This document shows, in pieces, positions 3,059 to 60,505 of a DNA stretch of 64,000 nt. The position numbers and the translations under genes are program-made. Source of the DNA: a virus. A model generated the notes under the pieces. It was not told the origin of the DNA and searched no databases. It saw only the letters and a program-made list of their open reading frames with translations. Each line of letters starts with the position of its first letter. Position 1 is the stretch's first letter. The stretch lies in IMG/VR virus record IMGVR_UViG_3300046674_000532; one strand, written 5' to 3'.

Positions 3059-3732
3059 GCCGCCACCGCCAGCTCCGCCGCCTGCTCTGCGGCGCCCTGG
3101 ACGTTCCACGCGCGGACGGCCTTGCCCAGGTAGTCCTCGCACACCTGCAAATAGGCGGCGATGTCCCGGTTCCCGACGCCCATCTCCCGCAGCTGGGTGA
3201 CGACGTCCCGGGATTCGTCCCGCACGATCTCCCACAGGGCCCGGGTGTCGCCGTTGCCGCGGCGGGGCAGGATGCCGCCCTTGCCACCCGCCCACCACAC
3301 CGCCAGACGGACGGTGACCGGCAACGCCAGGACGTCGTACTTCTGCAGCTCCACGACCATCTGCGCCGGCGTCAGACCGCGCTGCCGGAGCGGCATCATC
3401 CGCGACGACCACTCCGGGGACGCCAGCACCCGGGCCTGCCGCAGATCCGGATCCGCACCCAGGAGCGCCTCCACGCGCAGCGCACGCCGCTGCACCGTCG
3501 TCAGACCGCCGACGACACCCCACAGCATGTAACTGGACTGCTCGTACTCGAGCGCGTCGGACAGGCACGTCGTCCTCACCGGGCAGCCACGGCAGATCCC
3601 CTGAACGCGCTTCTGCGTGCCGGGACTGTCGGAGAACATGGTCTCGGTGTCGACTCCCTGGCAGCCGGAGGAGTCCCGCCAGTCGATGCTGCGCGCGGCG
3701 CGTTTCCTGGCGTGGCGGGTCGGGGTGTTCAT
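3055..3732 (-). CDS. WhiB-like Fe-S transcription factor domain fused to a C-terminal HTH-like region (225 aa)
   Basis: Cys pattern GC-x25-CRGCPVRTTC (C..CxxC..5..C), typical of the WhiB/Wbl family. A long C-terminal extension includes REMGVGNRDIAAYLQV. Confidence 0.75.
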   Translation of the reverse strand: MNTPTRHARKRAARSIDWRDSSGCQGVDTETMFSDSPGTQKRVQGICRGCPVRTTCLSDALEYEQSSYMLWGVVGGLTTVQRRALRVEALLGADPDLRQARVLASPEWSSRMMPLRQRGLTPAQMVVELQKYDVLALPVTVRLAVWWAGGKGGILPRRGNGDTRALWEIVRDESRDVVTQLREMGVGNRDIAAYLQVCEDYLGKAVRAWNVQGAAEQAAELAVAA

Positions 3733-4331
3733 GAGGTGGCTCCGGGAAGGGTCGGCCAGACCGCCTTTTCGATGGCGGCCCGGTGGGTTTTGGGCATGTC
3801 AGTGATCGGGTGGCCGATCCAGTCGCGGCCGGCGGCCATGAGGACGACGGCGTCGGCGGCGTTGTCGTCGCCTCCGGTGGTCCAGGCGGGGAAGCGTCGG
3901 GAGACCTGGTCGATGACGGCTCCCTTGGCGGCGGTGCCCTTGCCGGTGGCGTAGAGAGCGCGCTGGTTGGGGGACAGCAGGCCGACCGGGATGCTGCGTC
4001 GGGTGAGGCGGTTGTAGAGCTGCCACCAGAGCCAGCCGCGTTCGTGGGCGCCTCCTCCGCTGCGGGAGACGGCGGGGAGTTCCATGACGACGAGGTCGGG
4101 GCTGTCGATGGCGGCCAGGATGTTCTCGAGGAGGTTCTGCAGCTCGGTGAGGCGTTGCGGGTGTGGGAGTTGGGTGATGCCGGGGTCCTTGGCACGCTGC
4201 TTCTTGTAGCCGATGACTTCGCACCAGCCGCGGGTGGAGGCGAGGCCTGTGGCGGTGAGGCTGGGGTCGAGGCCGATGACGTGGGGGCCGGGGAGGGTGG
4301 TGGTGAGGGGGGCGGGGGCGGTGATGGTCAC
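3729..4331 (-). CDS. RuvC-like Holliday junction resolvase
   Basis: VIGLDPSLTATG (catalytic Asp), VVMELP (Glu) and DDNAADAVVLMAAG (C-terminal acidic pair). GTG start at 4331 overlaps the upstream stop (GTGA). Confidence 0.75.
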   Translation of the reverse strand: MTITAPAPLTTTLPGPHVIGLDPSLTATGLASTRGWCEVIGYKKQRAKDPGITQLPHPQRLTELQNLLENILAAIDSPDLVVMELPAVSRSGGGAHERGWLWWQLYNRLTRRSIPVGLLSPNQRALYATGKGTAAKGAVIDQVSRRFPAWTTGGDDNAADAVVLMAAGRDWIGHPITDMPKTHRAAIEKAVWPTLPGATS

Positions 4332-4537
4332 TGGGTGATCTCCTGGAGGGGTTGTCCGTGGCGCAGGTAGGTGGCGTGGCCGGGGCGGTGGCCGAGGTGG
4401 TGGAGGCCGCAGAATTCGCATTCGTACGGTCGGAGTCGGGGGCCGCCGATGCGTCGTATTTGGCGGGCTCGGCGTCGGGCGGTGGCGCGGTCGTAGAACC
4501 GGCTTTTACCGAGGCAGGCGACTTCGTACTCGGTCAC
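4328..4537 (-). CDS. Small basic protein with a CxxC pair (69 aa)
   Basis: Track ORF. ...YECEFCGLHHLGH... Translationally coupled on both sides. Confidence 0.5.
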   Translation of the reverse strand: MTEYEVACLGKSRFYDRATARRRARQIRRIGGPRLRPYECEFCGLHHLGHRPGHATYLRHGQPLQEITQ

Positions 4538-10724: not shown

Positions 10725-11828
10725 CTATACCGAGGGAACCTCCAGTCCAGCGCTGTCCGCGTACTCGTTCATCACACGCAGCGCCTTCACAAACGCACCC
10801 GTCGGCATCTTCCGGATGAGGTGCTGTGCAACGAAGTTCCCGTCGTCGTAGGGCAGGGTCCGCGGCGCAGGGTCCCCGCCGTCCTCGGCCTGCTGGACGG
10901 TCCGCGGTTCAGGGATCGGCTGCTCCGCCAGCACCACCGCGGGCGCATGGAGGTCCGGTGCGGTCTCCGGGACCGGAGCAGGGCCCGGCATCGGATCGGC
11001 ACCTGCTGGCTTGGACTTGGAGACGTCCGGAATTATCACGCCGTGATATTCGGCGGGCCCGGCCGAGCGTTCCGGCGCCGGGTATGGCGCGGGTTGCGGC
11101 GAAGCCGACCGGGCGGCCGCCTGGCTTTGAGCGGCTTCGGCGCGCGCGTCGGCCTTCTCAACCTGCTCCTGCGGGGTCAGCTTCCCGAGGTTGCGGACGT
11201 GCTCCACCCTGCGTGCACCGGTGACGAGGTCCTTCTGCAGCTCGGGGGTGAGCTTCAGCAGGGACAGCTTGGTGGAGAGCGTGGCCTGCGGGATCCCGAG
11301 CCGTTTCGCGGCCTTGAGCTGGGACCCGTAGTGGTCCACCAACTGCTTGAGCGCGTGGGCCTCCTCGAGGTCCGTCATGTCGTCGCGGTGGTAATTCGCG
11401 ATGAACGCGGCCTCGAGGAGGGTCTCGTCGGTGGCCAGCCGCGAGTTGTCGACCCTGACCGGGATGGTGGCCAGTCCGACGCGGCGGGAGGCCTCGAGGC
11501 GTCGGTGGCCGTCGATGACGACGTACTGGGCTCCGTCGTCGATGTCGTCGGCGCGGGCGGCCCGGTCACGGAGATAGGCCTCTGTCGTTCCGACGACGAT
11601 GGGCAGGATGATGCCGACCTGGCGGACGGACTCCACGGTCTCGTCGAGGTTGCGGAGGTGGTTGCGCGGGTTGTCGGGGTTGTCGCTGATCAGCGTGACG
11701 GGCAGTTCGGTGATGGCCGCGGTCGCTGCCGCGTCCCCTCCTATGGCGCTGTTGATGGCGTCGCGCCGTGGGCTGCGCCGGGCCGCGGCGAAGGCGGGCG
11801 CCGGGCCGAGGGTGTCGGCCTTGCTCAT
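10725..11828 (-). CDS. parB: ParB/Spo0J-family partition protein
   Basis: ParB N-terminal box ...YVVIDGHRRLEASRRVGLATIPVRV..., followed by an HTH (AAKRLGIPQATLSTKLSLLKL). Its start overlaps the parA stop. Confidence 0.85.
   Translation of the reverse strand: MSKADTLGPAPAFAAARRSPRRDAINSAIGGDAAATAAITELPVTLISDNPDNPRNHLRNLDETVESVRQVGIILPIVVGTTEAYLRDRAARADDIDDGAQYVVIDGHRRLEASRRVGLATIPVRVDNSRLATDETLLEAAFIANYHRDDMTDLEEAHALKQLVDHYGSQLKAAKRLGIPQATLSTKLSLLKLTPELQKDLVTGARRVEHVRNLGKLTPQEQVEKADARAEAAQSQAAARSASPQPAPYPAPERSAGPAEYHGVIIPDVSKSKPAGADPMPGPAPVPETAPDLHAPAVVLAEQPIPEPRTVQQAEDGGDPAPRTLPYDDGNFVAQHLIRKMPTGAFVKALRVMNEYADSAGLEVPSV
11032..11051. promoter_or_regulatory. parS-like palindrome AATTATCACGCCGTGATATT (copy inside parB)
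   Basis: Same ATTATCACG-N-CGTGATA(A/T)T motif as the two copies upstream of parA. GC-clamped flanks (CCGG...GGCGG). Confidence 0.55.
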
Positions 11829-12988
11829 CGGGTGGCCCCCTTCGCGACCTGCCGCATGGCCTCCGCCTGGTCGGACAGGGGTGCGTACGACAGCAGCGGC
11901 ATCCGCTTGCGGACCGCTTCCCGCTGTTCCTTCAGATCACCGATGACGGCCAGGACTCTCGGGTCACCGATGGCCTTCCAGCTATCCAGGGAGGAGGTGG
12001 CGACGTAACCGCGGCGCGAGTCGTACAAATTGACGACCAGGCCGAGGTAGTCGACGTCCAGGCTGAGGTCTTCGCACAGGGCTTCGATCTGCTGGTCGAG
12101 CATGCTGTACGCGGTGGCGGAGGAGTCCTCGGCGAGGACGGGAATGATGACGCCGGACTTGCCCTTGGCCTCGTTGCGGCGGCGGCGCGCGTAGTAGAGG
12201 GCGGCGTCCATGGCGATGCCGAGGCTGGGCGGGCAGTCCACGACGATGACGTCGTAGTCGGCCTCGAGGGGACGAAGTGCCATCTCCAGGGCGACTTCCT
12301 TCTGGAAGCCTCGCTTGTTCGCGGACAGGACGGCGATCCTCGAGTCGAGGAGGAATCCGTCGAAGCAGGCGGGCAGTACGTGCAGTCGCTTCTCGAACCG
12401 CGGATCGTCTATGACCACGACCAGGTCGCGGAGGTCTCCCTTGTCCTCGCCGCACATGTGGGAGACGAGGCTGTCGTGGTCGGGTGCGATCTGCAGGACA
12501 CCGAGTTGCTCGCTGAGGTGGCCTTGCGGGTCGTAGTCGACGAGCAGGACGCGCTTGCCCTGCTCGGCGTACGCCTGGGCGACGCCGGCGGAGATGGCGG
12601 TCTTGCCGACGCCGCCCTTCTGGTTGCAGACGACCTTGCGTTCGGCTTCTTCGTCCTGGGCGCCGTGCTGCGGGGAAGGGTTGGCGTCCAGCCACATCCG
12701 GACCGACTGCGCGAGGCCCTGGGTGTAGGAGACGGAGCGTTCGGTGCAGGCGTCCTTGAACGCGTCGTACTGGCCGGACGGGAGCCATGTGGAGAACGAG
12801 CGGGCGCCGGCCGTGTCGATGTCCGGGCTGATGCCGGGTTCGGCGCGCCATTGGGCGATGCCCGCGGTGACGGCGTCCTGGATGTCCAGGCCGAGCTCGG
12901 CGGCGCGGACCTTGAGTGCTTGTTGGAGCGCCGAGGGCAGCTTCGACGCTACCTTTTCCCGGTCTCCTTGGAGATATGGAGAGGCCAT
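11825..12988 (-). CDS. parA: ParA partition ATPase with a roughly 110-aa N-terminal DNA-binding-like extension
   Basis: Deviant Walker A NQKGGVGKTA, followed by VLLVDYDPQGH. The long N-terminal extension is as in type Ia ParA and has two RHH-like segments. Confidence 0.9.
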   Translation of the reverse strand: MASPYLQGDREKVASKLPSALQQALKVRAAELGLDIQDAVTAGIAQWRAEPGISPDIDTAGARSFSTWLPSGQYDAFKDACTERSVSYTQGLAQSVRMWLDANPSPQHGAQDEEAERKVVCNQKGGVGKTAISAGVAQAYAEQGKRVLLVDYDPQGHLSEQLGVLQIAPDHDSLVSHMCGEDKGDLRDLVVVIDDPRFEKRLHVLPACFDGFLLDSRIAVLSANKRGFQKEVALEMALRPLEADYDVIVVDCPPSLGIAMDAALYYARRRRNEAKGKSGVIIPVLAEDSSATAYSMLDQQIEALCEDLSLDVDYLGLVVNLYDSRRGYVATSSLDSWKAIGDPRVLAVIGDLKEQREAVRKRMPLLSYAPLSDQAEAMRQVAKGATR

Positions 12989-19774: not shown

Positions 19775-20167
19775 TCACTGCTCGCCGCCCTCGGCGCCTG
19801 CGGCCAGGAGGCCGGCAAGGCTCTGGAGGTGGGCGGCCGGGCCGAGGTCGGTGTAGAAGGAGCCTGCGGGCAGCGGGGGCAACTGCGCGGGCACGGCCTG
19901 GTGCACGAGCGGCTGGTCCGCCAGACCGAGCCCCTTACCGGCGCGCGACCACGCCTGGCACGGCGGAGACCAGATCTGCTTCTTCGACCGCCCCTTGAAT
20001 GGAGCGGTCGGGTACTGGGCGACGTCGCACTGGATAGTCAGGTGGCCCGCCGCCGCGCGGGTCTTGCACGCTGCGGTGTCCCACTCCAGCCCCACATCGC
20101 GAAGGCCAAGCAGCCGCAGCCCTTCCGACCAGCCACCAGGCCCTGCGAACCCGTCGAGGATCGTCAT
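19775..20167 (-). pseudogene. Truncated DNA (cytosine-5) methyltransferase (N-terminal 130 aa only)
   Basis: Motif I (ILDGFAGPGGWSEG) and motif IV (SPPCQAWSRAGKG) are present. ENV, the QxRxR/TRD and motifs IX-X are absent. The ORF stops after 130 aa and the 240 nt downstream have no continuing frame. Confidence 0.6.
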
Positions 20168-21123
20168 CAGGCGGCGCTCCTCTCTGCGGCGTTGGCCTGG
20201 GCGGCCTGTTCCTTCAACTGGGCGATGCGGCGCGTCAGGAGGTCCTCAACGCGCACGTCCATCTCGCCGACCTTCACCGTCTCGTCCAGAAGGCCGTGCT
20301 TCCTGGCGTCGGCAAGGTTCTGCTCGCACGACAGACGGTTCTTCCACCCGGCGTTGATTTTCTCCTTGAGGCCTTCCAGCGTGGTCCCCGCAGCCTGCTC
20401 CTGCCGGTGCACGTCCTCCCGCTGCTCTTCCGTAGGACTGGCAGGCACGGCATCTACCGCTTCCTGCTTCGCGGCCGCTACATCCGGCTCGGCCTCCACC
20501 TTGTCGTCCTTGAACTCGGCCTCCTTCGGCGCCTTCCAGTACGGAAGCGACGACTGCACCACCGGGGACAGACGGCCCTTGTTGTACAGGGACAGGCCGA
20601 ACTGATCACCCAGGTTGGTGGCCGCCCGCTTCAAGGCCTGCGAGTCGGCGGTCTTCAGCGCCAGGTCGTGAGCATCGGCCCGGGACGGCTGGTTCGTGGC
20701 GTCCCCGGTGGCGATGCCGTGCCAGTGGCCCAGCTCGATCCCGTCCACCTTCACCGACAGGCGAACCGCGACGCGGTAGATGACCGTCCACGCATCGAAG
20801 GGGTTCCCGTACGGGCGACCGTTCTTGTCCTTCTTCTGGTGGTCCGGGATGCAGGTCTCGGCGATCAGCGTCGACTCCAGCAGGTCGGTGTCGTGCCCGC
20901 CGAACCCGAAGATGCGGATCAGGTAGCGCCGAATGTCCCAGGCCTCCATGTGCGCGAAGCCCTTGCCGTCCGAACCCACCCGGTCCGGGTCAACGGGGCG
21001 CAGCAGCTGGGCGATCTGGAGGTCGGACAGGGTGCCCAGGCGGCGGGCCGGGGCCTGGTTTTGGGTGTGCGAGGTGGGGCCCTCCGCCGTCGTGCTGGCG
21101 AGGGCCTCGGTGGCCGGGGCCAT
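20167..21123 (-). CDS. Rad52/Sak-type single-strand annealing protein
   Basis: EAWDIRRYLIRIFGFGGHDTDLL and AHDLALKTADSQALKRAATNLGDQFGLSLYN parallel the Rad52 motifs (..NE.FG..GW.. and ..A.TD.LKRAL..FGN.LG). Confidence 0.75.
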   Translation of the reverse strand: MAPATEALASTTAEGPTSHTQNQAPARRLGTLSDLQIAQLLRPVDPDRVGSDGKGFAHMEAWDIRRYLIRIFGFGGHDTDLLESTLIAETCIPDHQKKDKNGRPYGNPFDAWTVIYRVAVRLSVKVDGIELGHWHGIATGDATNQPSRADAHDLALKTADSQALKRAATNLGDQFGLSLYNKGRLSPVVQSSLPYWKAPKEAEFKDDKVEAEPDVAAAKQEAVDAVPASPTEEQREDVHRQEQAAGTTLEGLKEKINAGWKNRLSCEQNLADARKHGLLDETVKVGEMDVRVEDLLTRRIAQLKEQAAQANAAERSAA

Positions 21124-22253: not shown

Positions 22254-22703
22254 GTGCGGAATACCAAGAACCAGACCACCACCCGCACGCTCACCGACCT
22301 CCTCCGCGCCGCCGGCCGCCAGCACGCCGTCACCATCACCTACCTCAAGCCCGGCGAGACCGAGCCCACCGTCCGCACCATCGAGATCCACGAGATCCGC
22401 ACCACCGCCGTGAAGATCAAGAAGACCGGCAAGGTCACCGGCGGAGGCCTCGTCATCATCGCCATGTGCCGACTCCGCGGAGAGGGAAGGGAATTCCACC
22501 TCTCCGGCATCCTCGCCTACACGCTCCACCGCATCCCCTACGTCCTCAAGCGCCCCGCCAACACCACCTACCAGCCCGCCGCCCCCCAGCCCACCGACGA
22601 CGCGGACGCCCTCTTCTTCCACGAGCTCGCCCGCGACCAGGACGACGCCGACTACCGTCCCCGCGTCAAGCTCACCCAGGCCGACACCGACCTCGCCGCC
22701 TGA
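22254..22703 (+). CDS. Small beta-rich protein, possibly WYL/SH3-like (149 aa)
   Basis: GTG at 22254 has AGGGGG 6 nt upstream, in frame with track ORF 21144..22703. TITYLKPGETEPTVRTIEIHEI...AMCRLRGEGREFHLSGI is WYL-domain-like. The call is tentative. Confidence 0.5.
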   Translation: MRNTKNQTTTRTLTDLLRAAGRQHAVTITYLKPGETEPTVRTIEIHEIRTTAVKIKKTGKVTGGGLVIIAMCRLRGEGREFHLSGILAYTLHRIPYVLKRPANTTYQPAAPQPTDDADALFFHELARDQDDADYRPRVKLTQADTDLAA

Positions 22704-22713
22704 AAGGCACCCC

Positions 22714-22989
22714 GTGATTACCTACTTCACTGCGCCTGGCACGCTCGCCGAAGCCCTGCATGTACTGGCGGAACGGATGGAACGTGTCGAGGAGCGCATC
22801 GGGCACGTCGCGCTGGCCAACATGATGAGCGCCGTACTCGACGGCCCCGGGCATACCGCCTGGACACCGACCGAACACCCGGAGCTGGCCCGGAAGATGC
22901 AGGACGCCATCGTCCCGGACGGCTTCCTGAGCCCGGTTCCGACGGCCGGGCAGGTGCGGCAGGCCGCCGACGCCGCCCGCAGTTCCTGA
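22714..22989 (+). CDS. Hypothetical protein (91 aa)
   Basis: Track ORF with a GTG start, 11 nt after the previous stop. Confidence 0.5.
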   Translation: MITYFTAPGTLAEALHVLAERMERVEERIGHVALANMMSAVLDGPGHTAWTPTEHPELARKMQDAIVPDGFLSPVPTAGQVRQAADAARSS

Positions 22990-23005
22990 CCCCGGACATG
23001 ACGAA

Positions 23006-23037
23006 GGCCACCACCCTCAAGGGGGTTGGTGGCCTTT
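23006..23037 (+). terminator. Hairpin followed by TTT after the 22714..22989 gene
   Basis: GGCCACCACCC-tcaa-GGGGGTTGGTGGCC followed by TTTCC, 17 nt after the stop. Confidence 0.55.
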
Positions 23038-23115
23038 CCATACGGATCACGCACGCGCAGCGTAGCGGATCTATGTGCACGCACGCCAGACCTGTTCAGG
23101 GATGACACTGGGGAC

Positions 23116-23313
23116 ATGGCCACGAACCGTCAGGAAGCGCTGATCGAGGAGCCGTCGGGACGCCGGCGCGTGTGGTGCCGGGGTGTCGGCTGCGGCCGTG
23201 AACTGACAGATCAGGTGTCACGCACGAGAGGCTTCGGCGAGGAGTGCGACCCCGAGCCCCGAACCCGGCCGCGGACGTTCGTCATCGACCAGGATCCGAT
23301 CCCCGGGACGTAA
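23116..23313 (+). CDS. Small Cys-containing protein, DUF6011-like (65 aa)
   Basis: ATG at 23116. VWCRGVGCGRELTDQVSRTRGFGEEC resembles the CxxCGRxLTDxxSxxxGxGxxC pattern of small Streptomyces DUF6011 proteins. Confidence 0.5.
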   Translation: MATNRQEALIEEPSGRRRVWCRGVGCGRELTDQVSRTRGFGEECDPEPRTRPRTFVIDQDPIPGT

Positions 23314-23315
23314 TG

Positions 23316-23355
23316 GCCGCGGGCCCGTCGCCGATGGGGAGCGCGGGCCCGCGGC
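23316..23355 (+). terminator. 12-bp GC hairpin after the 23116..23313 gene
   Basis: GCCGCGGGCCCG / CGGGCCCGCGGC with a 16-nt loop, starting 3 nt after the TAA stop. Confidence 0.55.
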
Positions 23356-23733
23356 AGGGGGCGGGAGCTTCACCTGGGGGGATCTGCTCGACCGCCGTGC
23401 GGGAACGGTACGCCCGCCCCGGTTGGTACGTACAGCCTTCAACAGAAATATCTACGGCCCGGGTCACCGGCCGCCCCCGGGGCGCTCCGGAGGAGAGCGG
23501 GGGCAGCGGATGCGCCGTTCCGGCATAGCGTGATCCCAGGGACTTGGTAGGGGATGCCGACCCATCCTCACCCCCTCCGACCAGGACTTTACGAACCCTC
23601 CGAACCCCCACCCACCAGGAGAGGCCGCGCACGCCCCGCCCCGCACCCCCGGCCGAACCGCAACCACCACCGCACCAGGGTGGACGGTCCTGAGGGTTTG
23701 TAAAGATTGATCTATGTCGTGGCGGGCGCCACT

Positions 23734-24591
23734 ATGGACCCCATGGACCCCCGCGCCCTGCTCGACGCCTGGCTCACCTCAGGACTGCTCCGCCAGTCCA
23801 CCGTCGGCCGCTACCAGCCGCAGGTCGACCAGTGGCTCACCTGGTGCGAGGCGAATGGTGTCCACCCCTACACCGCCGGCCTGCGCGAAGTCGCCGCCTT
23901 CTGCGGCCAGCGCCTCGCCCCCCACCTCGACGGACGGCCCTTCAACGGACCCGACGACCTCGCCCGCCTCGCCCAGGAGGCCCCCGACGTCGCCGGCACC
24001 CACGACGGCTACATCACCGCCATCACCGGCTACTACACCGCCGCCCACACCCGCGGCCTCATCCCCGGCATCCCCGACCTCACCGAGCTCCGCGCCGGCA
24101 TCGACCGCGACCCCGGCGCCCCCCAGAAGCTGAACCCCCGAGAACGCGCCGTCCTCCTCTACTGCATCGGCATGTGGAACCAGACCAACGCCCGCCACTA
24201 CCGGCGCGACCGCCTCATCGCCTACCTCCTCCTCGAAGGCATGCGGCCCGGCGAGATCGTCCGACTCGACTCCCGCCACCTCTACCCCCAGCCCGACGGC
24301 ACCACCGAAGTCCGCGCCCCCGACTACGACTTCGAAGCCCTCGGCCCCCAGTTCGTCCTCGACCCCATCACCGGCGCCGCCCTCCAGGACTACCTCCCCC
24401 ACCGGCCCCGCCCCGCCGAAGGCGTCCACGCCCTCATCCTCGGCCAAGGCGGACGCCCCGTCGTCTCCCGCTACCCCAACATGCTGATCCGGCAGATCGC
24501 CGCCCTCCACCCGATCCTCGCCCAACGCCAGCCACCCGTCACCGCCGACGCCGTCGCCCACACCGGCCTCTGGGACATCCCCGAAACCTGA
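23734..24591 (+). CDS. Degenerate tyrosine-recombinase-like protein (SAM-like N-domain plus partial catalytic domain; probably inactive)
   Basis: N-terminal core-binding-like region and box I (LLLEGMRPGEIVRLD) are present. No HxxR, no second His/Trp and no catalytic Tyr before the protein ends (..ADAVAHTGLWDIPET). Confidence 0.55.
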   Translation: MDPMDPRALLDAWLTSGLLRQSTVGRYQPQVDQWLTWCEANGVHPYTAGLREVAAFCGQRLAPHLDGRPFNGPDDLARLAQEAPDVAGTHDGYITAITGYYTAAHTRGLIPGIPDLTELRAGIDRDPGAPQKLNPRERAVLLYCIGMWNQTNARHYRRDRLIAYLLLEGMRPGEIVRLDSRHLYPQPDGTTEVRAPDYDFEALGPQFVLDPITGAALQDYLPHRPRPAEGVHALILGQGGRPVVSRYPNMLIRQIAALHPILAQRQPPVTADAVAHTGLWDIPET

Positions 24592-24743
24592 CCCCAGTAG
24601 CGCTGTAGAAACTGCGGGGCCGATGTCGGGGGTGGCTTGTACGGTCTTTCTGACCAGGAACAACGTCCGATCAGGTGGATCACTTCCGAATGACGGGTTA
24701 TGTCCTTGGTGAGGGCGCACCGTGCGCCCGCCGAAGGAGCCCC

Positions 24744-24938
24744 ATGGACCGGACACCCTTTGCTCTTGCAGTGGCCAGCCTGATCCTGCAAGCCCTAACT
24801 TTCCTCAGCCCACCCAGCCCCGCCCCCATCCGGACCGAGGTCACCGTGACCCTCCAGGTGCCAGCCACCGCCCCCACCTGCATCTGGGCCACCCCACCAG
24901 GCGGCTATTCCGGCCCGGTGCGCGTCACGTCCTGGTGA
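24744..24938 (+). CDS. Small secreted/membrane peptide (64 aa)
   Basis: ATG at 24744 has AAGGAG 5 nt upstream. N-terminal hydrophobic helix FALAVASLILQALTFL. Confidence 0.5.
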   Translation: MDRTPFALAVASLILQALTFLSPPSPAPIRTEVTVTLQVPATAPTCIWATPPGGYSGPVRVTSW

Positions 24939-24989
24939 GGCCTGTCAAACTCGGCGGCGCGCGGAAGCCCGTACTGGCAGGATCGCCCC

Positions 24990-25958
24990 ATGCTCATTTC
25001 GCCCCGCCCGGGCACCGACCGGGACAACCTCCTCCAGACCCTGCGGTCCGTGCACACCAGCGCCTCCAACGAGCACGGCCGCGGCTACGACAACGCCTAC
25101 AAGCGGCTGCTGGGATATCTGGAGTGGGCGATGGGCGCAGCCCGGCTGCTGCGCAACCAGATCAGCACCGAGGACCTGCACGCCTTGGTACTGACGAAGG
25201 GCCACGACACCCTGCTGAACGGCATCGGCGACCTCGAGGGTTCACGACGGGAACGCCTGGTGAACCTGCTTGTCGACCAAGAACTCGCCGAGCGCACCGA
25301 GGCACTCGAGGCCACAGTCAACCTGCTCCAATCACTGAGGCACCGCTGGCCAGGACACGAACGGTTCGTTGTCGCCGACCCCAGCTTCTACATCCAGAAC
25401 GAGATCAAGCTGGCCGACGTCGACCTGCACCAGGTGCTCGGCATCCGGGAAGAGGCCTTCATCCGGCTGCTGTTCCCCATCGTGGTGGTCGACGAGCTCG
25501 ACGGGCTGAAGGACGCGGGCAAGCCGCGGCCCCGGTGGAGGGCAGCCCACACACTCGGCCTCCTCGACGGGGTCCTGAACGGCGACACCGAAGGTGTTCT
25601 GCACCCCGGAACCTACGACCCCAGCAACGGGGAGACCCTGGGTAAAGTCATCGTGGAAATCGTCCTCGATCCTCCCGGGCATGTCCGCCTACCGCTGGCC
25701 GACGACGAGATCGTCGACCGGGCGGTCGTCCTCCAAGCCCTCGGCGGCCGCGACGTACGTCTGCTGACGTGCGACACCAGCCAGCACACCCGCGGCTGCG
25801 CGGCCGGCCTGCAGGTGACGAAGGTCGCGACGAAAGACCCCGGCCCCGAGCCCGACTGGGAGGCCGAGGGCAAGCCGGGGACCGGCGTACGGGCGCAGCG
25901 CCGCGCCAGGCAGGAAGCCAGGAACGGCAGTTCCGCCGAGGCGCCCGCGAACTCATGA
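24990..25958 (+). CDS. PIN-domain nuclease with an N-terminal helical domain (322 aa)
   Basis: Four acidic positions in PIN order: FVVADPSF, VVVDELDGL, DDEIVDRAV, LLTCDTSQ. The 3' end overlaps the recombinase 3' end by 6 nt (convergent). Confidence 0.65.
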   Translation: MLISPRPGTDRDNLLQTLRSVHTSASNEHGRGYDNAYKRLLGYLEWAMGAARLLRNQISTEDLHALVLTKGHDTLLNGIGDLEGSRRERLVNLLVDQELAERTEALEATVNLLQSLRHRWPGHERFVVADPSFYIQNEIKLADVDLHQVLGIREEAFIRLLFPIVVVDELDGLKDAGKPRPRWRAAHTLGLLDGVLNGDTEGVLHPGTYDPSNGETLGKVIVEIVLDPPGHVRLPLADDEIVDRAVVLQALGGRDVRLLTCDTSQHTRGCAAGLQVTKVATKDPGPEPDWEAEGKPGTGVRAQRRARQEARNGSSAEAPANS

Positions 25959-27101
25959 CCCGGCAGGCCCGGCCTCCTTGACGGCTGCCTTCCCGATCTG
26001 CGCGAGCGGGTTGTTCTCGCCCTGGGCGTCGTCCTCGTCTACGTAGCCGATCAGCGCTTTGGACTGGTCGTCCCAGCCGCCGTGCCGGCCGATCTGCACG
26101 ATGTCGACGCCCGCGGTCCGGGCCGACTTCACGAAGCCGCGGCGGGAGGAGTGGGAGCGCCACCGGCCCGGCAGCCCGGTCCGCTCGATGGACCGCTGGA
26201 TGACGTCGGAGGCGGCCTCGGTCGTCAGCCGTCCGTCCTCGGCGCCGATAGGCTCACCGCCACGCTGCATCTCCGGGTTGAGGTAGCCCCAGCGGTCCAT
26301 GCGCAGGAACAGGGGGCCCACGGTGTGTCCGTTGTCGGCGAGGGCGGCAACCAGGGCGCGGACCGCGCGGACGGCGCACAGGTCGGGTTCGGGGTCGAGC
26401 GGAATGTCGGGGGTCTGCCACATCTTGCGCTTCTTGCGGTAGACGCGGACCTGCAGACCGCCGTCGGGGAGATCGGTGAAGCTGTCCGGCCAGTTCAGCG
26501 GCACGAGTTCGCTGCCGCGCGAGGCCAGCGCGTGACCGAGCAGCATCAGGGCGGCGTCCCGCTTCCCTGCCAGGGTGGTGCGGTCCAGCTCACCGAGCGC
26601 GGTGCGCAGGACGGTCCGGTCGGCGGGGCTCGCCTTCTGCGGGCGGGCGGCCGGGTCCTGGGCGAGGGCGAGCTGCTCGCGGTAGCCGGCCACGACCTTC
26701 CGGGCGCCCATGGTGTCCGGGGGCCGGTACCCGGCGGCCCGGTGGGAGGAGCGGATGGACGCGATGACGCGGTCCATCGTGTTCGGTCCGTACGGGCGTC
26801 CGGTGCGCGGCCGCGGAGTGCGCTTCAGGTAGGAGAGGTACTCGGTGACGGTCTGCGGCGCAGCCGGCAGCGGGCGGCGGCCGACGGACAGGCACCATGC
26901 GGTGAAGCGGTCCATGTCGCCCTTGTACGCCTTGGTGGTCTCCTCCGGGATTCCGGCCTTGACATCCTGCTGGGCTTCCTCGGACAGCCAGGCGTCCGGG
27001 TCCTCTTCCGTCAACGGGACGGCGGGGGCCCGGTCTTCGGGGATGGCGGGCAGCCGGTCGTCGACCAGCTCCGCGTCGACCACCTCGTCGCGCATGCTCA
27101 C
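25953..27101 (-). CDS. Tyrosine recombinase (integrase or plasmid dimer resolvase)
   Basis: Catalytic set present: ALASRGSELVPL (Arg), WRSHSSRRGF (HxxR), GRHGGW (Trp), ALIGYVDE (Tyr). The N-terminal SAM-like domain includes TVTEYLSYL. Confidence 0.9.
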   Translation of the reverse strand: MSMRDEVVDAELVDDRLPAIPEDRAPAVPLTEEDPDAWLSEEAQQDVKAGIPEETTKAYKGDMDRFTAWCLSVGRRPLPAAPQTVTEYLSYLKRTPRPRTGRPYGPNTMDRVIASIRSSHRAAGYRPPDTMGARKVVAGYREQLALAQDPAARPQKASPADRTVLRTALGELDRTTLAGKRDAALMLLGHALASRGSELVPLNWPDSFTDLPDGGLQVRVYRKKRKMWQTPDIPLDPEPDLCAVRAVRALVAALADNGHTVGPLFLRMDRWGYLNPEMQRGGEPIGAEDGRLTTEAASDVIQRSIERTGLPGRWRSHSSRRGFVKSARTAGVDIVQIGRHGGWDDQSKALIGYVDEDDAQGENNPLAQIGKAAVKEAGPAGS

Positions 27102-27493
27102 GGCCGCCAGTTCTCCTTGTAGTCCTGGTGCGTGGCGTACTCCAGCGCGTGCAGTTTGATGACGTCCATGTAAGCGACGGTGGCCACCTGGGAGTTGTCG
27201 TGGTCCCAGTTCATCTCCTTGCCGCGGAGGGTCTGGCCCAGTGCGGCTTCGAACATGTCCAGGGTGGCTTCGATCGCGTCCAGGTGAGCTTTGAAGCGTC
27301 CCAAGGGGACGAGGGCTGTCGTGCCGCCGCCGGTGCCGATCTGGTGCTGTGCCCCTGTGATGACCGGACAGTGCACGGCGTCCAGCGTGCTACGGTCGTC
27401 GGCGATGCGTTTCCGGAGGAAGGTGGTGAGGTCGTCCACCGCGGGTGGGCCGGACGCGGCAATGACGCGGTGGGCGATTTCGGCCTCGTTCAC
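27098..27493 (-). CDS. Hypothetical protein (131 aa), co-transcribed with the recombinase
   Basis: GTG at 27493 has GGGGAG 6 nt upstream. The stop overlaps the recombinase start (ATGA). Confidence 0.55.
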   Translation of the reverse strand: MNEAEIAHRVIAASGPPAVDDLTTFLRKRIADDRSTLDAVHCPVITGAQHQIGTGGGTTALVPLGRFKAHLDAIEATLDMFEAALGQTLRGKEMNWDHDNSQVATVAYMDVIKLHALEYATHQDYKENWRP

Positions 27494-27604
27494 GGGTGTC
27501 TCCCCTGCCTCGGATGATCGCTCTACAGAAGGAACATTACTTGGAGCCAGCGTGCGCATTGCCTCCGAAACAGCGATACCCCCGCACGGTGGCGGGGGTA
27601 TCGG

Positions 27605-27916
27605 CTAGGCGTTCCGAGTGATGCCGTACGGATCCCACGTCGGCTGGAAGTCGGAGTGCGTTGCCCACCGGCGAGCCACCAGCGCCAGGTAGTGGAACGG
27701 CATGGACGGGTCGTCGCCGTGCGAAAGTTCCGACTGTGCGACGCCCTTGATGTAGACGGCGAGGTCGAGAAGCGACTGGAAGGCCCTGCCTTCTTCCGAG
27801 TCGTACCGTGCAGCGTCGCGTAGCGGACCAACCCGGGCCTGGATGAAAGCGACGAGGGCGTCGATGTCTTCCTGCGAACGAGGCGGTTCAGGCGTGTACT
27901 CGGTCTGATCGGTCAC
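27605..27916 (-). CDS. Hypothetical protein (103 aa)
   Basis: Track ORF. GTG start with no RBS, and TAAGCT 8 nt upstream, so the transcript may be leaderless. Confidence 0.55.
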   Translation of the reverse strand: MTDQTEYTPEPPRSQEDIDALVAFIQARVGPLRDAARYDSEEGRAFQSLLDLAVYIKGVAQSELSHGDDPSMPFHYLALVARRWATHSDFQPTWDPYGITRNA

Positions 27917-28040
27917 GGCATGTGAGCTTATCGGGAACCAGAGCGCGTGATCCCGGCGCCGAACTACTAGTCCGGGACGAAATGGGAGACCAGTAGTAGT
28001 TCTGGGAGATGACTGACCGTTTCGATCAGTTCGATTTTTC

Positions 28041-28075
28041 GTCAGGAACGATCCTAAGCGCGGACCGTTCCTGAC
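28041..28075 (-). terminator. 10-bp inverted repeat GTCAGGAACG / CGTTCCTGAC downstream of the 28094..28519 gene
   Basis: 15-nt loop. It lies 19 nt after the stop. The adjacent T5 run is on the wrong side for a canonical intrinsic terminator on the minus strand. Confidence 0.4.
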
Positions 28076-28093
28076 GACCTGCTCCTTCGACGT

Positions 28094-28519
28094 TCAGGAC
28101 GGACGTCCCATCGTCCAGCCCTGAACTTCCTGAACCCGGACCCGCCACAACGGCGACTCCATGCCCTGAACGACGTCACCGTCCAACGTCCCCCGGTAGT
28201 TCGTGACCACCCGCGCGTTCTTCAGGTGTGCGAAGTACAGCGGGTCCTCGTCCCCCCGGGGACCGGTCTCCTCGCTGACGCTCTTCAGGAACTTGCCCAC
28301 CAGGTCGGCGCCGTCGCCGACCTCCGCCATCCACCTCTCGAAGGCGGCCACCCACTGGTCATGACCGATCAGGTCACCGCACACCAGCGTTCCCCCGACC
28401 AGGAGGCTGACCGAAATGGAAGCCTGCTTTTGGTCCTCCAAGTCCAGGAACTCCAACAGCGCGTCAAAGTAGAGGTCCCGGTACGCGCCCACGGCCGGCT
28501 GAGAGGTCTTTTCACTCAT
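28094..28519 (-). CDS. Hypothetical protein, GvpU-like pattern (141 aa)
   Basis: Clean ORF with lower GC3 than its neighbours. ISVSLLVGGTLVCGDLIG...YFAHLKNARV...WRVRVQEVQGW resembles my recollection of gas-vesicle accessory protein GvpU. The function call is weak. Confidence 0.5.
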   Translation of the reverse strand: MSEKTSQPAVGAYRDLYFDALLEFLDLEDQKQASISVSLLVGGTLVCGDLIGHDQWVAAFERWMAEVGDGADLVGKFLKSVSEETGPRGDEDPLYFAHLKNARVVTNYRGTLDGDVVQGMESPLWRVRVQEVQGWTMGRPS

Positions 28520-28615
28520 TGTGCTTCCCCGCTGTGCAGAGTCCCGGCGGGCCCTGTGCCCCCAGCCGACTCGGATGCATCAACGGTATCCCGCCCCACT
28601 GACAACGCGGCGTAG

Positions 28616-28774
28616 CTACTTCTTCGCCTGCAGCGCGAGGACGGGGGCGTGGCAGAGGACGCAGAGCGGGCTCGCCTTCTCGCCGTACCTTCGGGTGGGG
28701 TGGCCGCAGCCCGCGCACGGGCCGACCTGGGCGGGCGCGCACGTGGGCATAGGCGGAGCGGGAGGACTGGTCAT
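28616..28774 (-). CDS. Possible small zinc-ribbon protein (52 aa)
   Basis: Not in the track (under 60 aa). MTSPPAPPMPTCAPAQVGPCAGCGHPTRRYGEKASPLCVLCHAPVLALQAKK, GC3-rich, with CxxC...CxxC. The RBS is weak. Confidence 0.4.
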   Translation of the reverse strand: MTSPPAPPMPTCAPAQVGPCAGCGHPTRRYGEKASPLCVLCHAPVLALQAKK

Positions 28775-28790
28775 GCCGGGATCATCTCAC

Positions 28791-29069
28791 TCACCGGTCC
28801 TCGATCTTCAGATAGATCGACCGCTCAGCGATCAGCCCGCTGGTGGTGGTGATCTGGCAGACCACCGCGCTGACGTCACCGAGCGCCCCGCCTGATACCC
28901 GCTGGGTGACGACAGAACCGTTCACCACCGGTGCCCCGACAGCCGTGAGCCCATCATTCGCAACGACCGTTGCTTCGCTGATGGTGTCGCCTACTTCCGC
29001 GAGCCAGAGCGTCCAGTCCCAGGTGTAGTCCAGCAGCTCGGAGGGGTCTTTGGCGAAGGTGGTGGACAT
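28791..29069 (-). CDS. Hypothetical tail-associated protein (92 aa)
   Basis: Track ORF with an ATG start, lying 3 nt after the fibre gene stop. Beta-rich. Confidence 0.55.
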   Translation of the reverse strand: MSTTFAKDPSELLDYTWDWTLWLAEVGDTISEATVVANDGLTAVGAPVVNGSVVTQRVSGGALGDVSAVVCQITTTSGLIAERSIYLKIEDR

Positions 29070-58669: not shown

Positions 58670-58795
58670 CTCCTGATGATCCCTGGTTTCCTCCGTTTCC
58701 TTCCCCCAGCAGGGGTGTTGCGCGTGGCCGGGAGGGGGGCCGGGTCGCGGGCCGGCGGGCGGTGCTGCTCCCCGAATTAGGTTGTCCATCTCATG

Positions 58796-58824
58796 TTGAC
58801 GGCCCATCGGGGCTCCGTTAGATT
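58796..58824 (+). promoter_or_regulatory. Near-consensus sigma-70/HrdB-type promoter TTGACG-17nt-TAGATT
   Basis: -35 at 58796..58801 and -10 at 58819..58824. Followed by GTCCAT, then the GGAGGGAG RBS (58849..58856) and the ATG at 58862. Confidence 0.65.
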
Positions 58825-58861
58825 GTCCATATCAACACGACAACCTACGGAGGGAGCACCG

Positions 58862-59266
58862 ATGCAGAACCTGCGGAGCCTGACGGACAACCAGCTCGCC
58901 GAGGTGTACAGCGACGGCGACGAGGCCACCCAGGCCGCGGTGCTCCGCGAGGCCGCCCGCAGGGACCGCAAGGACGCACAGACCGCCCGCGACAAGGCCC
59001 GCTGGGCGGCCGTGAACGACCAGTGGATGAGCTGGGCCGAAGCGCAGTTCGCCGCCGCCGAGGCCGAGTGCCGCGGATACCTGCTCAACAAGGCCGGCCA
59101 GGCCGAGGGCATGACCCCGTGGACGCTGTGGACCGGCCCCGCAGCCCGCGCGACGCGGTACGCCTCCGAGGAGCTGCTGGAGTTCTGGGACACCCACCCG
59201 CGCCTGACCGTCAGCGAGTACCGCAACGAGCTGCGCCGCGCGAACCACGACCAGCCGGCCGCCTGA
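58862..59266 (+). CDS. Hypothetical protein (134 aa)
   Basis: Track ORF 58793..59266 trimmed to the ATG at 58862, which has a strong RBS. Confidence 0.6.
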   Translation: MQNLRSLTDNQLAEVYSDGDEATQAAVLREAARRDRKDAQTARDKARWAAVNDQWMSWAEAQFAAAEAECRGYLLNKAGQAEGMTPWTLWTGPAARATRYASEELLEFWDTHPRLTVSEYRNELRRANHDQPAA

Positions 59267-59299
59267 ACCGCCCATCCCACCCGCCGAAAGGACACGACC

Positions 59300-59635
59300 A
59301 TGACCGACTCCTCCTCCACCACCCGCTTCCAGGCCCGCAAGGCGCGCTCCGGCTGGTACGTCCAGGACTCCGTCACGGGCGACGTGTGGACGGGACTGTC
59401 CCGGCCCGGTGTGGACAACCTGATCGGCCACCTCGCCAAGGACAGGGCGTCCGCCCCGGTGGTCACGGCGGTCGCGGACGAGCCCGCCACCGCGGACGAG
59501 CCCGGCCAGCAGCCGCTGTGGGTGGAGATGATGGGCGCGGACTTCGGCGAGAGCCGTGGGCCGGTGCAGGGTTCGCTGTTCCAGGCTCCGGATGCGTGCG
59601 GAACGCTGGACCTGTTCGCCGCCATGGGCGAGTAG
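59300..59635 (+). CDS. Hypothetical protein (111 aa)
   Basis: Track ORF. ATG with GAAAGGA upstream. Confidence 0.55.
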   Translation: MTDSSSTTRFQARKARSGWYVQDSVTGDVWTGLSRPGVDNLIGHLAKDRASAPVVTAVADEPATADEPGQQPLWVEMMGADFGESRGPVQGSLFQAPDACGTLDLFAAMGE

Positions 59636-59672
59636 CTTGTCTCTATCAGAACGACTATCTATGGAGGTTGTG

Positions 59673-60032
59673 ATGGGTGCTGAGCCCGCAGGGCTGCCGG
59701 ACGCCGACGAGCTGATCGCCGTGGCGCAGGGGGCGCTGGCCGGCGGCACGGCCGACGACGCGCGCCGCGCGCTGGACGCTTACGCCCCGGCCGTCGACAC
59801 GCTGGTCGATGCGGCCGCGGCCGCGGCGTGGCTGGGCATCTCGCCATCCTCCATCTACCGCGAGCGCTCGCGCGAGCGCGCGGACGGGACGCCCGGCTGG
59901 CCCGACCCGGACAGGAAGTTCGGCCGGTCGGGGGTCTGGAGCTACCGGACGCTGGTGCTGCACCGGGCGACGATGCCGGGCCGGGGTTCGGCCGGCCGGG
60001 GTCGTCCGCGTCGGGCCGGCCAGTCGGGTTGA
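59673..60032 (+). CDS. HTH DNA-binding protein, excisionase/MerR-like (119 aa)
   Basis: ATG at 59673 has GGAGG 6 nt upstream. AAAWLGISPSSIYRERSR is HTH-like. The C-terminus is basic. Confidence 0.55.
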   Translation: MGAEPAGLPDADELIAVAQGALAGGTADDARRALDAYAPAVDTLVDAAAAAAWLGISPSSIYRERSRERADGTPGWPDPDRKFGRSGVWSYRTLVLHRATMPGRGSAGRGRPRRAGQSG

Positions 60033-60058
60033 CGGGGTTCTCACCCGGAAGATAGGTT
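60029..60058 (+). promoter_or_regulatory. Near-consensus promoter TTGACG-18nt-TAGGTT giving a leaderless ASCH mRNA
   Basis: -35 at 60029..60034 and -10 at 60053..60058. The ATG at 60065 lies 6 nt after the -10 and has no RBS. Confidence 0.6.
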
Positions 60059-60064
60059 GTCCAT

Positions 60065-60505
60065 ATGGACGAGACAAGCTTTCAGGATGCCCTGTTCGCC
60101 ACGGACACCGAGCCCACGCCGTACGTGCTCACCGTGAAGCAGCCCTGGGCGTGGGCCATCATCCACGCGGGCAAGGACGTCGAAAACCGCAGCAGGCCTG
60201 TCAACTACCGGGGCAAGCTGCTCATCCAGGCTGGCAAGAGCTACGCCCCCGAGGGTGACAAGTACCTGCGCGATCTGGGCATCACTCCCCCGGCCGACCT
60301 GCCGCGCGGCTGCATCATCGGCTCTGTCGAGGTCGTCGGCTCCACCAGCCGGTCCACCTCCGAGTGGGCCATGGACGGATACCAGCACTGGCTGCTCGCC
60401 GACCCGAAGCCTGCTGCGCAGCTCCTGCCGTGCCGGGGATCGCTGAGCATGTTCCGCGCCCCCGAGGGTTGGGAGCAGGCGTTCACGTCGCCTTCGGGGG
60501 CATGA
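60065..60505 (+). CDS. ASCH-domain protein (146 aa)
   Basis: LTVKQPWAWAIIHAGKDVENRSRPVNYRGKLLIQAG matches the ASCH N-terminal pattern (..QPWA..I..G.K..E.R......G...IHA). Confidence 0.7.
   Translation: MDETSFQDALFATDTEPTPYVLTVKQPWAWAIIHAGKDVENRSRPVNYRGKLLIQAGKSYAPEGDKYLRDLGITPPADLPRGCIIGSVEVVGSTSRSTSEWAMDGYQHWLLADPKPAAQLLPCRGSLSMFRAPEGWEQAFTSPSGA

Follow-up and report, generated by a model that had tools for sequence, protein, structure and literature searches.

A putative recombinase junction with an exchangeable PIN-domain cassette in a probable Streptomyces phage-plasmid of the pZL12/pSLE1 family

We analysed a stretch of 64,000 nucleotides of viral DNA (IMG/VR record IMGVR_UViG_3300046674_000532; the whole stretch is called the window below) and within it the region 23316-28790, where genes on the + strand (22254-25958) face genes on the - strand from 25953 on. 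Gene calls relied on the G+C content at third codon positions (GC3), which tells real genes from spurious open reading frames (ORFs) in this window (overall GC 0.694). The region contains, from left to right (Table 1): i) a non-coding module with a promoter-like block and an inverted repeat; ii) a strongly coding gene, here named INT285, that was missing from the preliminary description of this DNA; iii) a gene for a PIN-domain protein; iv) a convergent gene for a Cre-like tyrosine recombinase, headed by one clear and one weak DUF6221 gene; and v) genes for a GvpU-like and a small zinc-ribbon-like protein. On balance, we read this region as the recombinase junction of a Streptomyces phage-plasmid of the pZL12/pSLE1 family, with the PIN cassette as swappable cargo. 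The structural part of this picture (the anatomy, the phage-plasmid setting and the division into backbone and cargo) we hold to be highly probable.

The contig from which the window was taken measures 97,174 bp. Its TerL shares 60% identity with the TerL of Streptomyces phage/plasmid ZL12 (pZL12, NC_013420), with no other phage close, and the early (~3-22 kb) and late (~32-58 kb) modules are collinear with those of pZL12 at 30-73% protein identity (local tblastn); at that sensitivity the part from 22.7 to 31 kb has nothing in common with pZL12. The partition genes parA and parB are present, and WhiB-like proteins and a WYL protein are encoded as well. No tRNA gene was found in the 64 kb, nor any convincing direct repeat or att-like repeat in the window, and the idea of a tRNA or a phage attachment site (attP) was dropped on these grounds. 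Because of the TerL match and the collinearity with pZL12, the presence of ParAB, the absence of a tRNA gene and the fact that relatives of INT285 occur almost only on contigs of 85-107 kb, the element is probably a plasmid prophage (a phage-plasmid of the pZL12/pSLE1 type, ~97 kb) and not a classical integrated prophage, the temperate-phage setting that the preliminary description had supposed. A replicon state of ~90 kb outside the chromosome is true of 13 relatives in PLSDB (plasmids of 86-94 kb), and pZL12 and pSLE1 have been described as autonomously replicating plasmids bearing phage genes (PMC4487206). A megablast search with the region and tblastn searches with the PIN and INT285 proteins against 50,697 phage records gave no matches. 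The ParA protein has an N-terminal extension of ~115 amino acids (aa). Recombination functions of the element's own are provided by a Rad52-like gene (20167-21123) and by one resembling RuvC (3729-4421), and these genes, with parA and parB, characterise it as a plasmid prophage so equipped.

Table 1. Features of the junction and its surroundings (positions in the window)
Feature	Position	Strand	Remarks
ParB	10725-11828		partition gene
ParA	11825-12988		partition gene
WYL-domain protein	22254-22703	+	Pfam WYL, E 1.6e-5
91-aa ORF	22714-22989	+
DUF6011 protein	23026-23313	+	Pfam DUF6011, E 1.3e-7
Non-coding gap	23314-23733		420 bp, GC 0.71
Promoter-like block (putative promoter)	23500-23532	+	GGGGnA...N...ATAGCGTG; from the alignment of ~18 relatives
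Inverted repeat, left arm	23587-23600		CTTTACGAACCCTC; full arm ~16 bp
Inverted repeat, right arm	23692-23705		GAGGGTTTGTAAAG; ~90 bp from left arm
INT285	23707/23743-24591	+	GC3 0.93
Putative leaderless promoter of INT285	23708-23742	+	TTGATC, 17 nt, ACTATG, then ATG 23743
Non-coding gap	24592-24989		398 bp, GC 0.67
Lineage-specific spacer holding orphan ORF	24592-24945		~350 bp
Orphan 64-aa ORF	24744-24938	+	ribosome-binding site GAAGGAG; modest GC3
PIN 5' element	24946-24989	+	CAAAC-N27-CAGGATCGCCCC, then ATG
PIN gene	24990-25958	+	322 aa
Cre-like tyrosine recombinase	25953-27101	-	382 aa
DUF6221 protein	27098-27559	-	Pfam DUF6221, E 2.5e-8; start uncertain (27559 or 27493)
GC-rich hairpin between both DUF6221 genes	27573-27604		12-bp arms, 8-nt loop
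103-aa protein, weakly DUF6221-like	27605-27916	-	Pfam, E 0.006
AT-richer gap	27917-28093		177 bp, GC 0.56
11-bp inverted repeat	27961-27971 and 27992-28002		GAACTACTAGT ... AGTAGTAGTTC; 20-nt spacer
Hairpin	28039-28077		16-bp arms; 17 nt downstream of gene 28094-28519
GvpU-like 141-aa protein	28094-28519	-	NCBIfam GvpU
Non-coding gap	28520-28615		96 bp
52-aa zinc-ribbon-like ORF	28616-28774	-	CxxC...CxxC; GC3 0.91
Gp77-like fiber-tail adaptor	28791-29069	-	Pfam PF23148, E 3.7e-20

One arrangement, i.e. INT285 on the + strand, 0-7 unrelated genes and then a convergent recombinase gene on the - strand, is kept in ~20 loci, these being the fetched relatives (denoted by L numbers) with an identifiable convergent recombinase. 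As judged from sequence comparison, the conserved backbone consists of INT285, the inverted repeat with the promoter-like elements, the Cre-like recombinase gene that follows one or two DUF6221 genes, and the zinc-ribbon gene. Accessory genes are the PIN gene and probably the GvpU-like gene. The slot between INT285 and the recombinase gene holds other cargo elsewhere: genes for a PP2C/SpoIIE phosphatase, a phage zinc-finger protein, a DUF6300 protein and many unknowns, and no PADLOC model matched the cargo of these other slots. The slot is taken by the PIN gene in the window (100%), L008 (96%), L041 (88%), L038-40 (81%), L009 (72%) and L035, a Streptomyces europaeiscabiei plasmid (64%; identities to the window protein); of the family's 13 complete plasmids, only 2 carry it. 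In L009, L035 and L038 it lies 42-43 bp behind INT285 on the same strand, and in L041 an unrelated spacer fills this interval. The preliminary description had considered the whole region an accessory island, which stands for the PIN gene but not for the recombinase, DUF6221, zinc-ribbon and INT285 genes, conserved as they are in ~20 relatives. The picture of the element is thereby corrected: the supposed island is mostly maintenance backbone, and only the PIN cassette is to be treated as a moron. The slot is a recurrent one, seen on no fewer than 13 complete Streptomyces plasmids and with ~200 clusters of INT285 homologues, and can be mined for new conflict genes.

INT285 encodes a protein of 282-285 aa (the ORF opens at 23707, with an ATG at 23743 and an alternative ATG at 23734). 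Its homologues form 206 clusters, the longest contigs of which are overwhelmingly 85-107 kb in size and in several cases labelled plasmid, and a few of the loci are on contigs above this size (108-156 kb). PLSDB holds the gene on 13 plasmids, all from Streptomyces, all of 86-94 kb and with pSLE1 among them; by this distribution INT285 is a hallmark gene of the ~90-kb Streptomyces phage-plasmids. The protein has no match in Pfam, PHROG or NCBIfam, and a two-domain tyrosine-recombinase fold is indicated by its AlphaFold2 (AF2) model (predicted local distance difference test score, pLDDT, 82), for which Foldseek returned XerA, Cre, XerH, Tn1549 Int and lambda Int at probability 1.0. In the alignment the Arg-I motif is retained (LLLEGxRxxE), the HxxR position is taken by an invariant PPVTAD, and the protein ends ~15 residues past this motif, before the Trp/His-III and Tyr helices (helices L-N are missing from the model); the catalytic Arg-II, His and Tyr are thus all missing. 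A sub-threshold XerD-like alignment, the only one obtained with the INT285 profile against the PDB sequences, was used solely for the placement of motifs. Because of the replacement of HxxR and the early stop, INT285 as aligned and modelled cannot be an active integrase, and is a C-terminally truncated and catalytically dead recombinase. A role as protelomerase or telomere site was ruled out, there being no Tyr, and pZL12 and pSLE1 being circular.

Alignment of the ~300 bp upstream of INT285 in ~18 relatives, pSLE1 included, revealed a conserved non-coding module (window 23488-23742) that is composed of the promoter-like block, which has a single match in the window, the inverted repeat and a promoter element of the leaderless type. 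The latter recurs in the relatives as TTGATC-N17-CAnnAT-N6-8-ATG and would give rise to a leaderless INT285 transcript; its putative -35 is abutted by the right arm of the repeat. The arms covary: complementarity holds for 93.7% of the cells, a level that none of 500 shuffles attained (80.8%) and that compares with 27-52% in slid controls, and compensatory changes occur at 13 of the 16 arm positions (against 5.7 ± 1.4). The centre of the repeat is not conserved and falls into two sequence classes; a tie between these classes and the type of recombinase was considered and rejected, there being no correlation across the relatives. The arm motif is present in two copies in the 64 kb, both within this repeat, by which a dispersed operator is ruled out. 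Neither INT285 nor the repeat occurs in pZL12, and L030 has both, with no recombinase within 9 kb downstream. The best reading of the repeat is that of a DNA site for INT285 that overlaps the gene's own promoter: having lost catalysis, the protein probably survives as a sequence-specific DNA-binding protein, which would recognise the co-evolving 16-bp arms.

The repeat might also act as an RNA element, i.e. a small RNA or an attenuator hairpin in the 5' untranslated region, instead of being a protein-binding DNA site. The strong covariation of the arms, the predicted fold of the + strand RNA (-49.7 kcal/mol, z = -4.6) and the presence of a promoter-like block ~55 nt upstream would suit such an element. 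However, departures from pairing of the G-U type and of the A-C type number 8 each, and because the two are equally common neither strand is favoured as RNA; in addition, the repeat has no Rfam match, its centre is unconserved with two classes, and the abutment of the right arm on the -35 is operator-like. We consider an RNA element unlikely, though with a share of the probability that should be kept in mind. Two contigs end in or at the edge of the repeat region: L015 breaks off 86 nt before the ATG of INT285, and L023 (a contig of 89,333 bp) begins 147 nt before it. Coverage may have dropped there at a strong hairpin rich in GC, or the DNA may really end. Preferring a DNA site for INT285, one may speculate that the protein, as a domesticated recombinase, and its paired 16-bp sites constitute a new maintenance or regulatory module of a large family of Streptomyces phage-plasmids, with INT285 as an autoregulated DNA-looping repressor or as an accessory factor that gives the Cre-like enzyme its resolution selectivity, and that the junction is a dedicated cargo hotspot exchanging single-gene conflict cassettes, the PIN nuclease among them, with chromosomes; we find this possible and would not bet on it. 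Among the leads obtained here, a domesticated recombinase paired with a site of its own would be the most novel one.

The 382-aa product of the convergent gene could be aligned to residues 37-327 of Cre (phmmer), with R173, K201, H289, R292, W315 and Y324 all matched. A tblastn search against phages retrieved P1 Cre (~23% identity), the score against Pfam PF00589 stays below threshold (24.6 bits, cut-off 27.1), and a PHROG integrase profile matches with E 6.5e-9. Judged by its residues, the enzyme is Cre-like and catalytically complete. It is 29% identical to pZL12 gp036, encoded at the syntenic position (pairwise BLASTP, E 2e-22), and given this match the lack of any tblastn hit of the recombinase in pZL12 at 1e-3 is a sensitivity artefact. 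The position is occupied in the relatives by the window's type, by the gp036 type (L008) or by a remoter Phage_integrase type (cluster c9). The L008 gene (L008:1138-2169) has no tblastn match to the window recombinase, though the PIN proteins of the two loci are 96% and the DUF6221 proteins 74% identical, which suggests allelic replacement of the recombinase inside a conserved frame. We propose that the Cre-like enzyme would act on the plasmid itself, in multimer resolution and/or the circularisation of incoming DNA, like P1 Cre-lox, because the replicons are plasmids with ParAB; it would probably not integrate the element into the chromosome. New Cre-like recombinases are possible tools for Streptomyces genetics, and so is the dead paralogue together with its putative DNA site.

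A different role was raised by the authors of the pSLE1 paper, who noted ParAB, synteny with pZL12 and 'two putative integrases' and suggested integration (PMC4487206). Both recombinase-type genes would then make up an integration/excision module, with the repeat region as attP and INT285 as an arm-binding or directionality factor. The unique conserved site does adjoin the recombinase-type genes, and the few INT285 loci on contigs of 108-156 kb would agree with integration. Nearly all homologues, however, sit on contigs of ~90 kb, including 13 complete circular plasmids, the classes of the repeat centre are uncorrelated with the recombinase type, and in L030 INT285 and the repeat persist with no recombinase near by, so that we find an integration module doubtful. 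A scan for lox-like sites near the gene (inverted arms of 11-14 bp, spacer of 6-8 bp) returned only two hairpins (27573-27604 and 28042-28074), neither of which is conserved with the recombinase across loci. Many relatives contain a palindrome, GGTGCCCCGGCT-GAGGAAAGC-AGCCGGGGCACC, with conserved arms and a conserved 9-nt centre, where two genes converge, 1-6 kb downstream of INT285 (among others L009:3998-4030, L019:14677-14709, L021:13959-13991, L024:10826-10858 and L025:13171-13203); it is absent from the window, and might serve for termination in both directions or as the core site of a recombinase.

The PIN protein combines a helical N-terminal domain (~1-120) with a nuclease domain of the PIN_4/SMG6-like kind. 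Its match to Pfam PIN_4 (PF13638) has E 0.006 and 17.3 bits; most close homologues do carry a precomputed PF13638 match. The AF2 model (pLDDT 81.7) retrieved as top Foldseek hits the PIN domains of SMG6/EST1A, Nmd4, TTHA0540 and AF0591 at probability 1.0, and D130, E169 (ELD), D238/E240 (DDEI) and D262 (TxD) are invariant in 36 homologues and sit at predicted strand or helix ends, as expected of a PIN domain. The active site is intact, its acidic residues fitting those of a PIN domain, and the earlier recognition of a 322-aa PIN protein is upheld in spite of the weak Pfam match. For the helical domain no match was found in Pfam, PHROG or NCBIfam and no relatives were found; a resemblance to the epsilon antitoxin (E 0.33) was treated as chance. 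The close homologues, more than 600 in number (57-96% identity, 312-322 aa), bear no other name than "PIN domain-containing protein", and a profile search gave 1590 clusters at 50% identity, 360 of them at E ≤ 1e-30. The two-domain architecture is common to the hits listed, with named members from Streptomyces, Micromonospora and Actinoplanes. The actinomycetes have a large and uncharacterised family of such two-domain PIN proteins (> 1500 clusters at 50% identity), which can be moved about as single genes.

The sequence CTGGCAGGATCnnCGC-ATG, with GAAAC 27 nt upstream, precedes 10 of the 10 PIN homologues examined, plasmid or chromosomal, and may represent the -10 of a leaderless promoter or a Shine-Dalgarno leader. 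Because this element precedes every homologue examined, the PIN gene travels with its own expression signal, i.e. as an autonomous cassette. In a neighbour-joining tree (without support values) the slot copies are scattered among chromosomal ones, the neighbours of which include genes for AbiTii, CTD6/MC2, RIT-type recombinases, DUF4238, bpMoxR/VWA, SLFN_AlbA_2 and transposases. Circumstantially, these neighbourhoods and the tree fit a mobile conflict gene. On the Streptomyces scabiei chromosome (L005, L006 and L007) a PIN homologue lies 255 bp from a divergent gene with an AbiTii domain, with CTD6/MC2 genes and a recombinase trio with DUF6262 near by, possibly a defence island.

The PIN protein would be a metal-dependent ribonuclease expressed from the maintenance-side (+) strand, and would most likely serve in inter-element conflict (abortive infection or exclusion), with the N-terminal domain holding the nuclease in check until triggered. 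The preliminary description had proposed a stand-alone PIN protein without obvious antitoxin as abortive-infection or toxin candidate. That the gene stands alone was borne out, its motifs are intact and its homologues lie in mobile or defence-like neighbourhoods, but the comparison of ten proteins of the region with PADLOC-DB v2, which had been put forward as a check, yielded no match at E ≤ 0.01. As a defence or toxin candidate the PIN gene is plausible, and this applies to the gene alone and not to the whole region; to an actual role in defence or abortive infection we assign rather less than an even chance.

The gene could also have an element-intrinsic housekeeping function, such as the processing of phage-plasmid transcripts or the tuning of the lysis-lysogeny or the recombinase circuit, and not one in inter-element conflict. 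Its location at 42-43 bp behind INT285 on the same strand (L009, L035 and L038) and the similar identities of the PIN and INT285 proteins to those of the window in shared elements (58-65%) accord with this, but most members of the phage-plasmid family lack the PIN gene, the cassette is also found by itself in chromosomal islands that have no relation to phage-plasmids, and the slot is filled elsewhere by unrelated genes, which leaves the housekeeping function a small chance. PIN toxins of the VapC type are the commonest toxins of plasmid toxin-antitoxin systems, and on a plasmid prophage with ParAB the protein might be an addiction (post-segregational killing) toxin, with either the fused N-terminal domain as antitoxin (its likeness to the epsilon antitoxin, at E 0.33, is very weak and non-significant) or else an RNA or peptide that escaped recognition, but this is very improbable in view of the lack of a conserved adjacent gene in any context, the occurrence on only 2 of 13 complete family plasmids, the many chromosomal copies and a two-domain architecture of 322 aa that is unlike VapC.

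The 64-aa peptide that had been noted upstream of the PIN gene does have an ORF with a GAAGGAG ribosome-binding site, but this ORF has no homologue except itself among 5.8 billion protein clusters, and in L008, the closest relative (96% identical), it is truncated by a TAT to TAG change and shows 4 synonymous and 5 non-synonymous changes. By these comparisons the ORF does not qualify as an antitoxin or other conserved partner of the PIN protein. A degenerate copy of the PIN 5' element (GAAAC...GTACGG) is found at 24617-24655, just after the INT285 stop (the intact one lies at 24946-24989), and suggests that the spacer was inserted into this element or duplicated it.

A reading of all 5.5 kb as a moron or accessory island in a temperate phage that integrates, with the recombinase as integrase and the PIN protein as an abortive-infection protein or toxin possibly controlled by the 64-aa peptide, agrees with the location between early and late modules, the mixed strands, the lower GC, the tyrosine recombinase and the intact PIN active site, but is hardly credible given ParAB and the collinearity with the plasmid-phage pZL12, relatives that are plasmids of 86-94 kb, the place of the recombinase, DUF6221, zinc-ribbon and INT285 genes in the conserved backbone, an orphan 64-aa ORF that is truncated in L008, and a window without tRNA or att-like repeat.

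Several points weigh against our own reading of a phage-plasmid recombinase junction with PIN cargo: i) the extrachromosomal state of the element is extrapolated from its relatives; ii) the scan revealed no lox-like core site for the Cre-like enzyme, and the preference for resolution over integration, which the pSLE1 authors suggested, derives from the replicon state and the analogy with P1; iii) the proposed binding of INT285 to the repeat is argued from adjacency and co-occurrence, and the stable RNA fold of the + strand would also suit an RNA structure; iv) the PIN protein falls under the Pfam PIN_4 cut-off (21.9 bits) and matches no model of PADLOC-DB v2, and we know of no member of its family with a tested function; and v) in several elements the PIN protein and INT285 have diverged in parallel, as would also be expected of a gene that has long resided in the element and has a role intrinsic to it.

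The junction is bounded on the left by 22254-23313, the start of the rightward block, which is divergent from the early genes on the - strand and has the order WYL, 91-aa ORF, DUF6011 that is identical in pSLE1, L035 and L010. A hairpin (AAGGCCACCACC...GGTGGTGGCCTT) occurs in this rightward operon at 23004-23036, between the 91-aa ORF and the DUF6011 gene, with counterparts in L026:7978-8008 and L022:3014-3046. The right-hand boundary, outside the junction, is the last structural gene (28791-29069). The several non-coding gaps of the preliminary description were found back at the lengths listed in Table 1, and so was the locally lower GC (the AT-richer gap, and 0.64 for the genes in 27098-28519, against 0.694 in the window); the overlap of the PIN gene with the convergent recombinase gene amounts to 6 bp. 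The statement that this is the only part of the window with mixed strands does not hold: a second + strand cluster of high GC3 is present at 58793-60505, with ORFs of 157, 111 and 146 aa. Across 22.9-29.1 kb there was no Rfam match, and scans with sigma-70 promoter and terminator consensus sequences, uninformative at such GC content, gave no matches.

Two further genes had been placed upstream of the recombinase gene, overlapping or abutting, and both match DUF6221. The first overlaps the recombinase start by 4 bp, is 74% identical in L008, and its position is occupied in pSLE1 and L038 too; the 103-aa protein has a homologue in L009 (50% identical). The 11-bp inverted repeat, 45-85 nt upstream of the first gene of the recombinase operon in the AT-rich gap, is operator-like and the hairpin at 28039-28077 terminator-like in appearance. 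The 141-aa protein matches NCBIfam NF041667 almost over its full length (E 1.9e-11, 44.3 bits, cut-off 70) and phrog_14356 (E 4.8e-6); as this is below the equivalog cut-off, it is only 'GvpU-like', the term used earlier. The proposed 52-aa zinc-ribbon ORF was confirmed by its CxxC...CxxC pattern and by tblastn matches in L008 (78%), L009 (54%) and L003.

We finally compared the junction with known systems. Like VapBC, it places a PIN-domain nuclease on a mobile element, but there is no conserved upstream antitoxin gene, the neighbours differ in every context, and the protein is 2.5 times longer, has two domains and forms a single-gene cassette. The nuclease domain resembles SMG6/EST1A and Pfam PIN_4 proteins, e.g. 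the N-terminal PIN domain of PhoH2/YlaK (Foldseek 2dok, 2hww, 3ix7 and 1o4w, probability 1.0), with the same ELD, DD-x-I and T-x-D motifs; it differs in its place C-terminal to a ~120-aa helical domain without detectable relatives and in the lack of both a PhoH ATPase and a TRAM domain, and sequence identity is 12-19%. With XerC/XerD-cer/psi it would share a tyrosine recombinase working on or for a plasmid and a conserved non-coding region of ~200 bp as possible accessory site, an inferential comparison in which the candidate accessory protein is a dead recombinase paralogue and no core site is defined. The likeness to P1 Cre-lox, known from sequence, extends over the full length of the enzyme and the Cre-type R-K-H-R-W-Y set, including the Trp, and P1 is likewise a plasmid prophage with a recombinase and a partition system; identity is, however, ~23%, no lox-like site (13-bp arms, 6-8-bp spacer) was found for the window enzyme, and P1 lacks the dead paralogue and the DUF6221 genes with which the latter is paired. 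pZL12 has early and late modules that are collinear with those of the window (30-73% identity), ParA/ParB and, at the same position, the tyrosine recombinase gp036 (29% identical), but unlike the window it is without INT285, the inverted repeat and the PIN gene. Finally, pSLE1 of Streptomyces leeuwenhoekii has the window's own order of WYL, DUF6011, INT285 homologue, convergent recombinase and DUF6221, and its slot is almost empty, whereas that of the window holds the PIN cassette and the lineage-specific 350-bp spacer.

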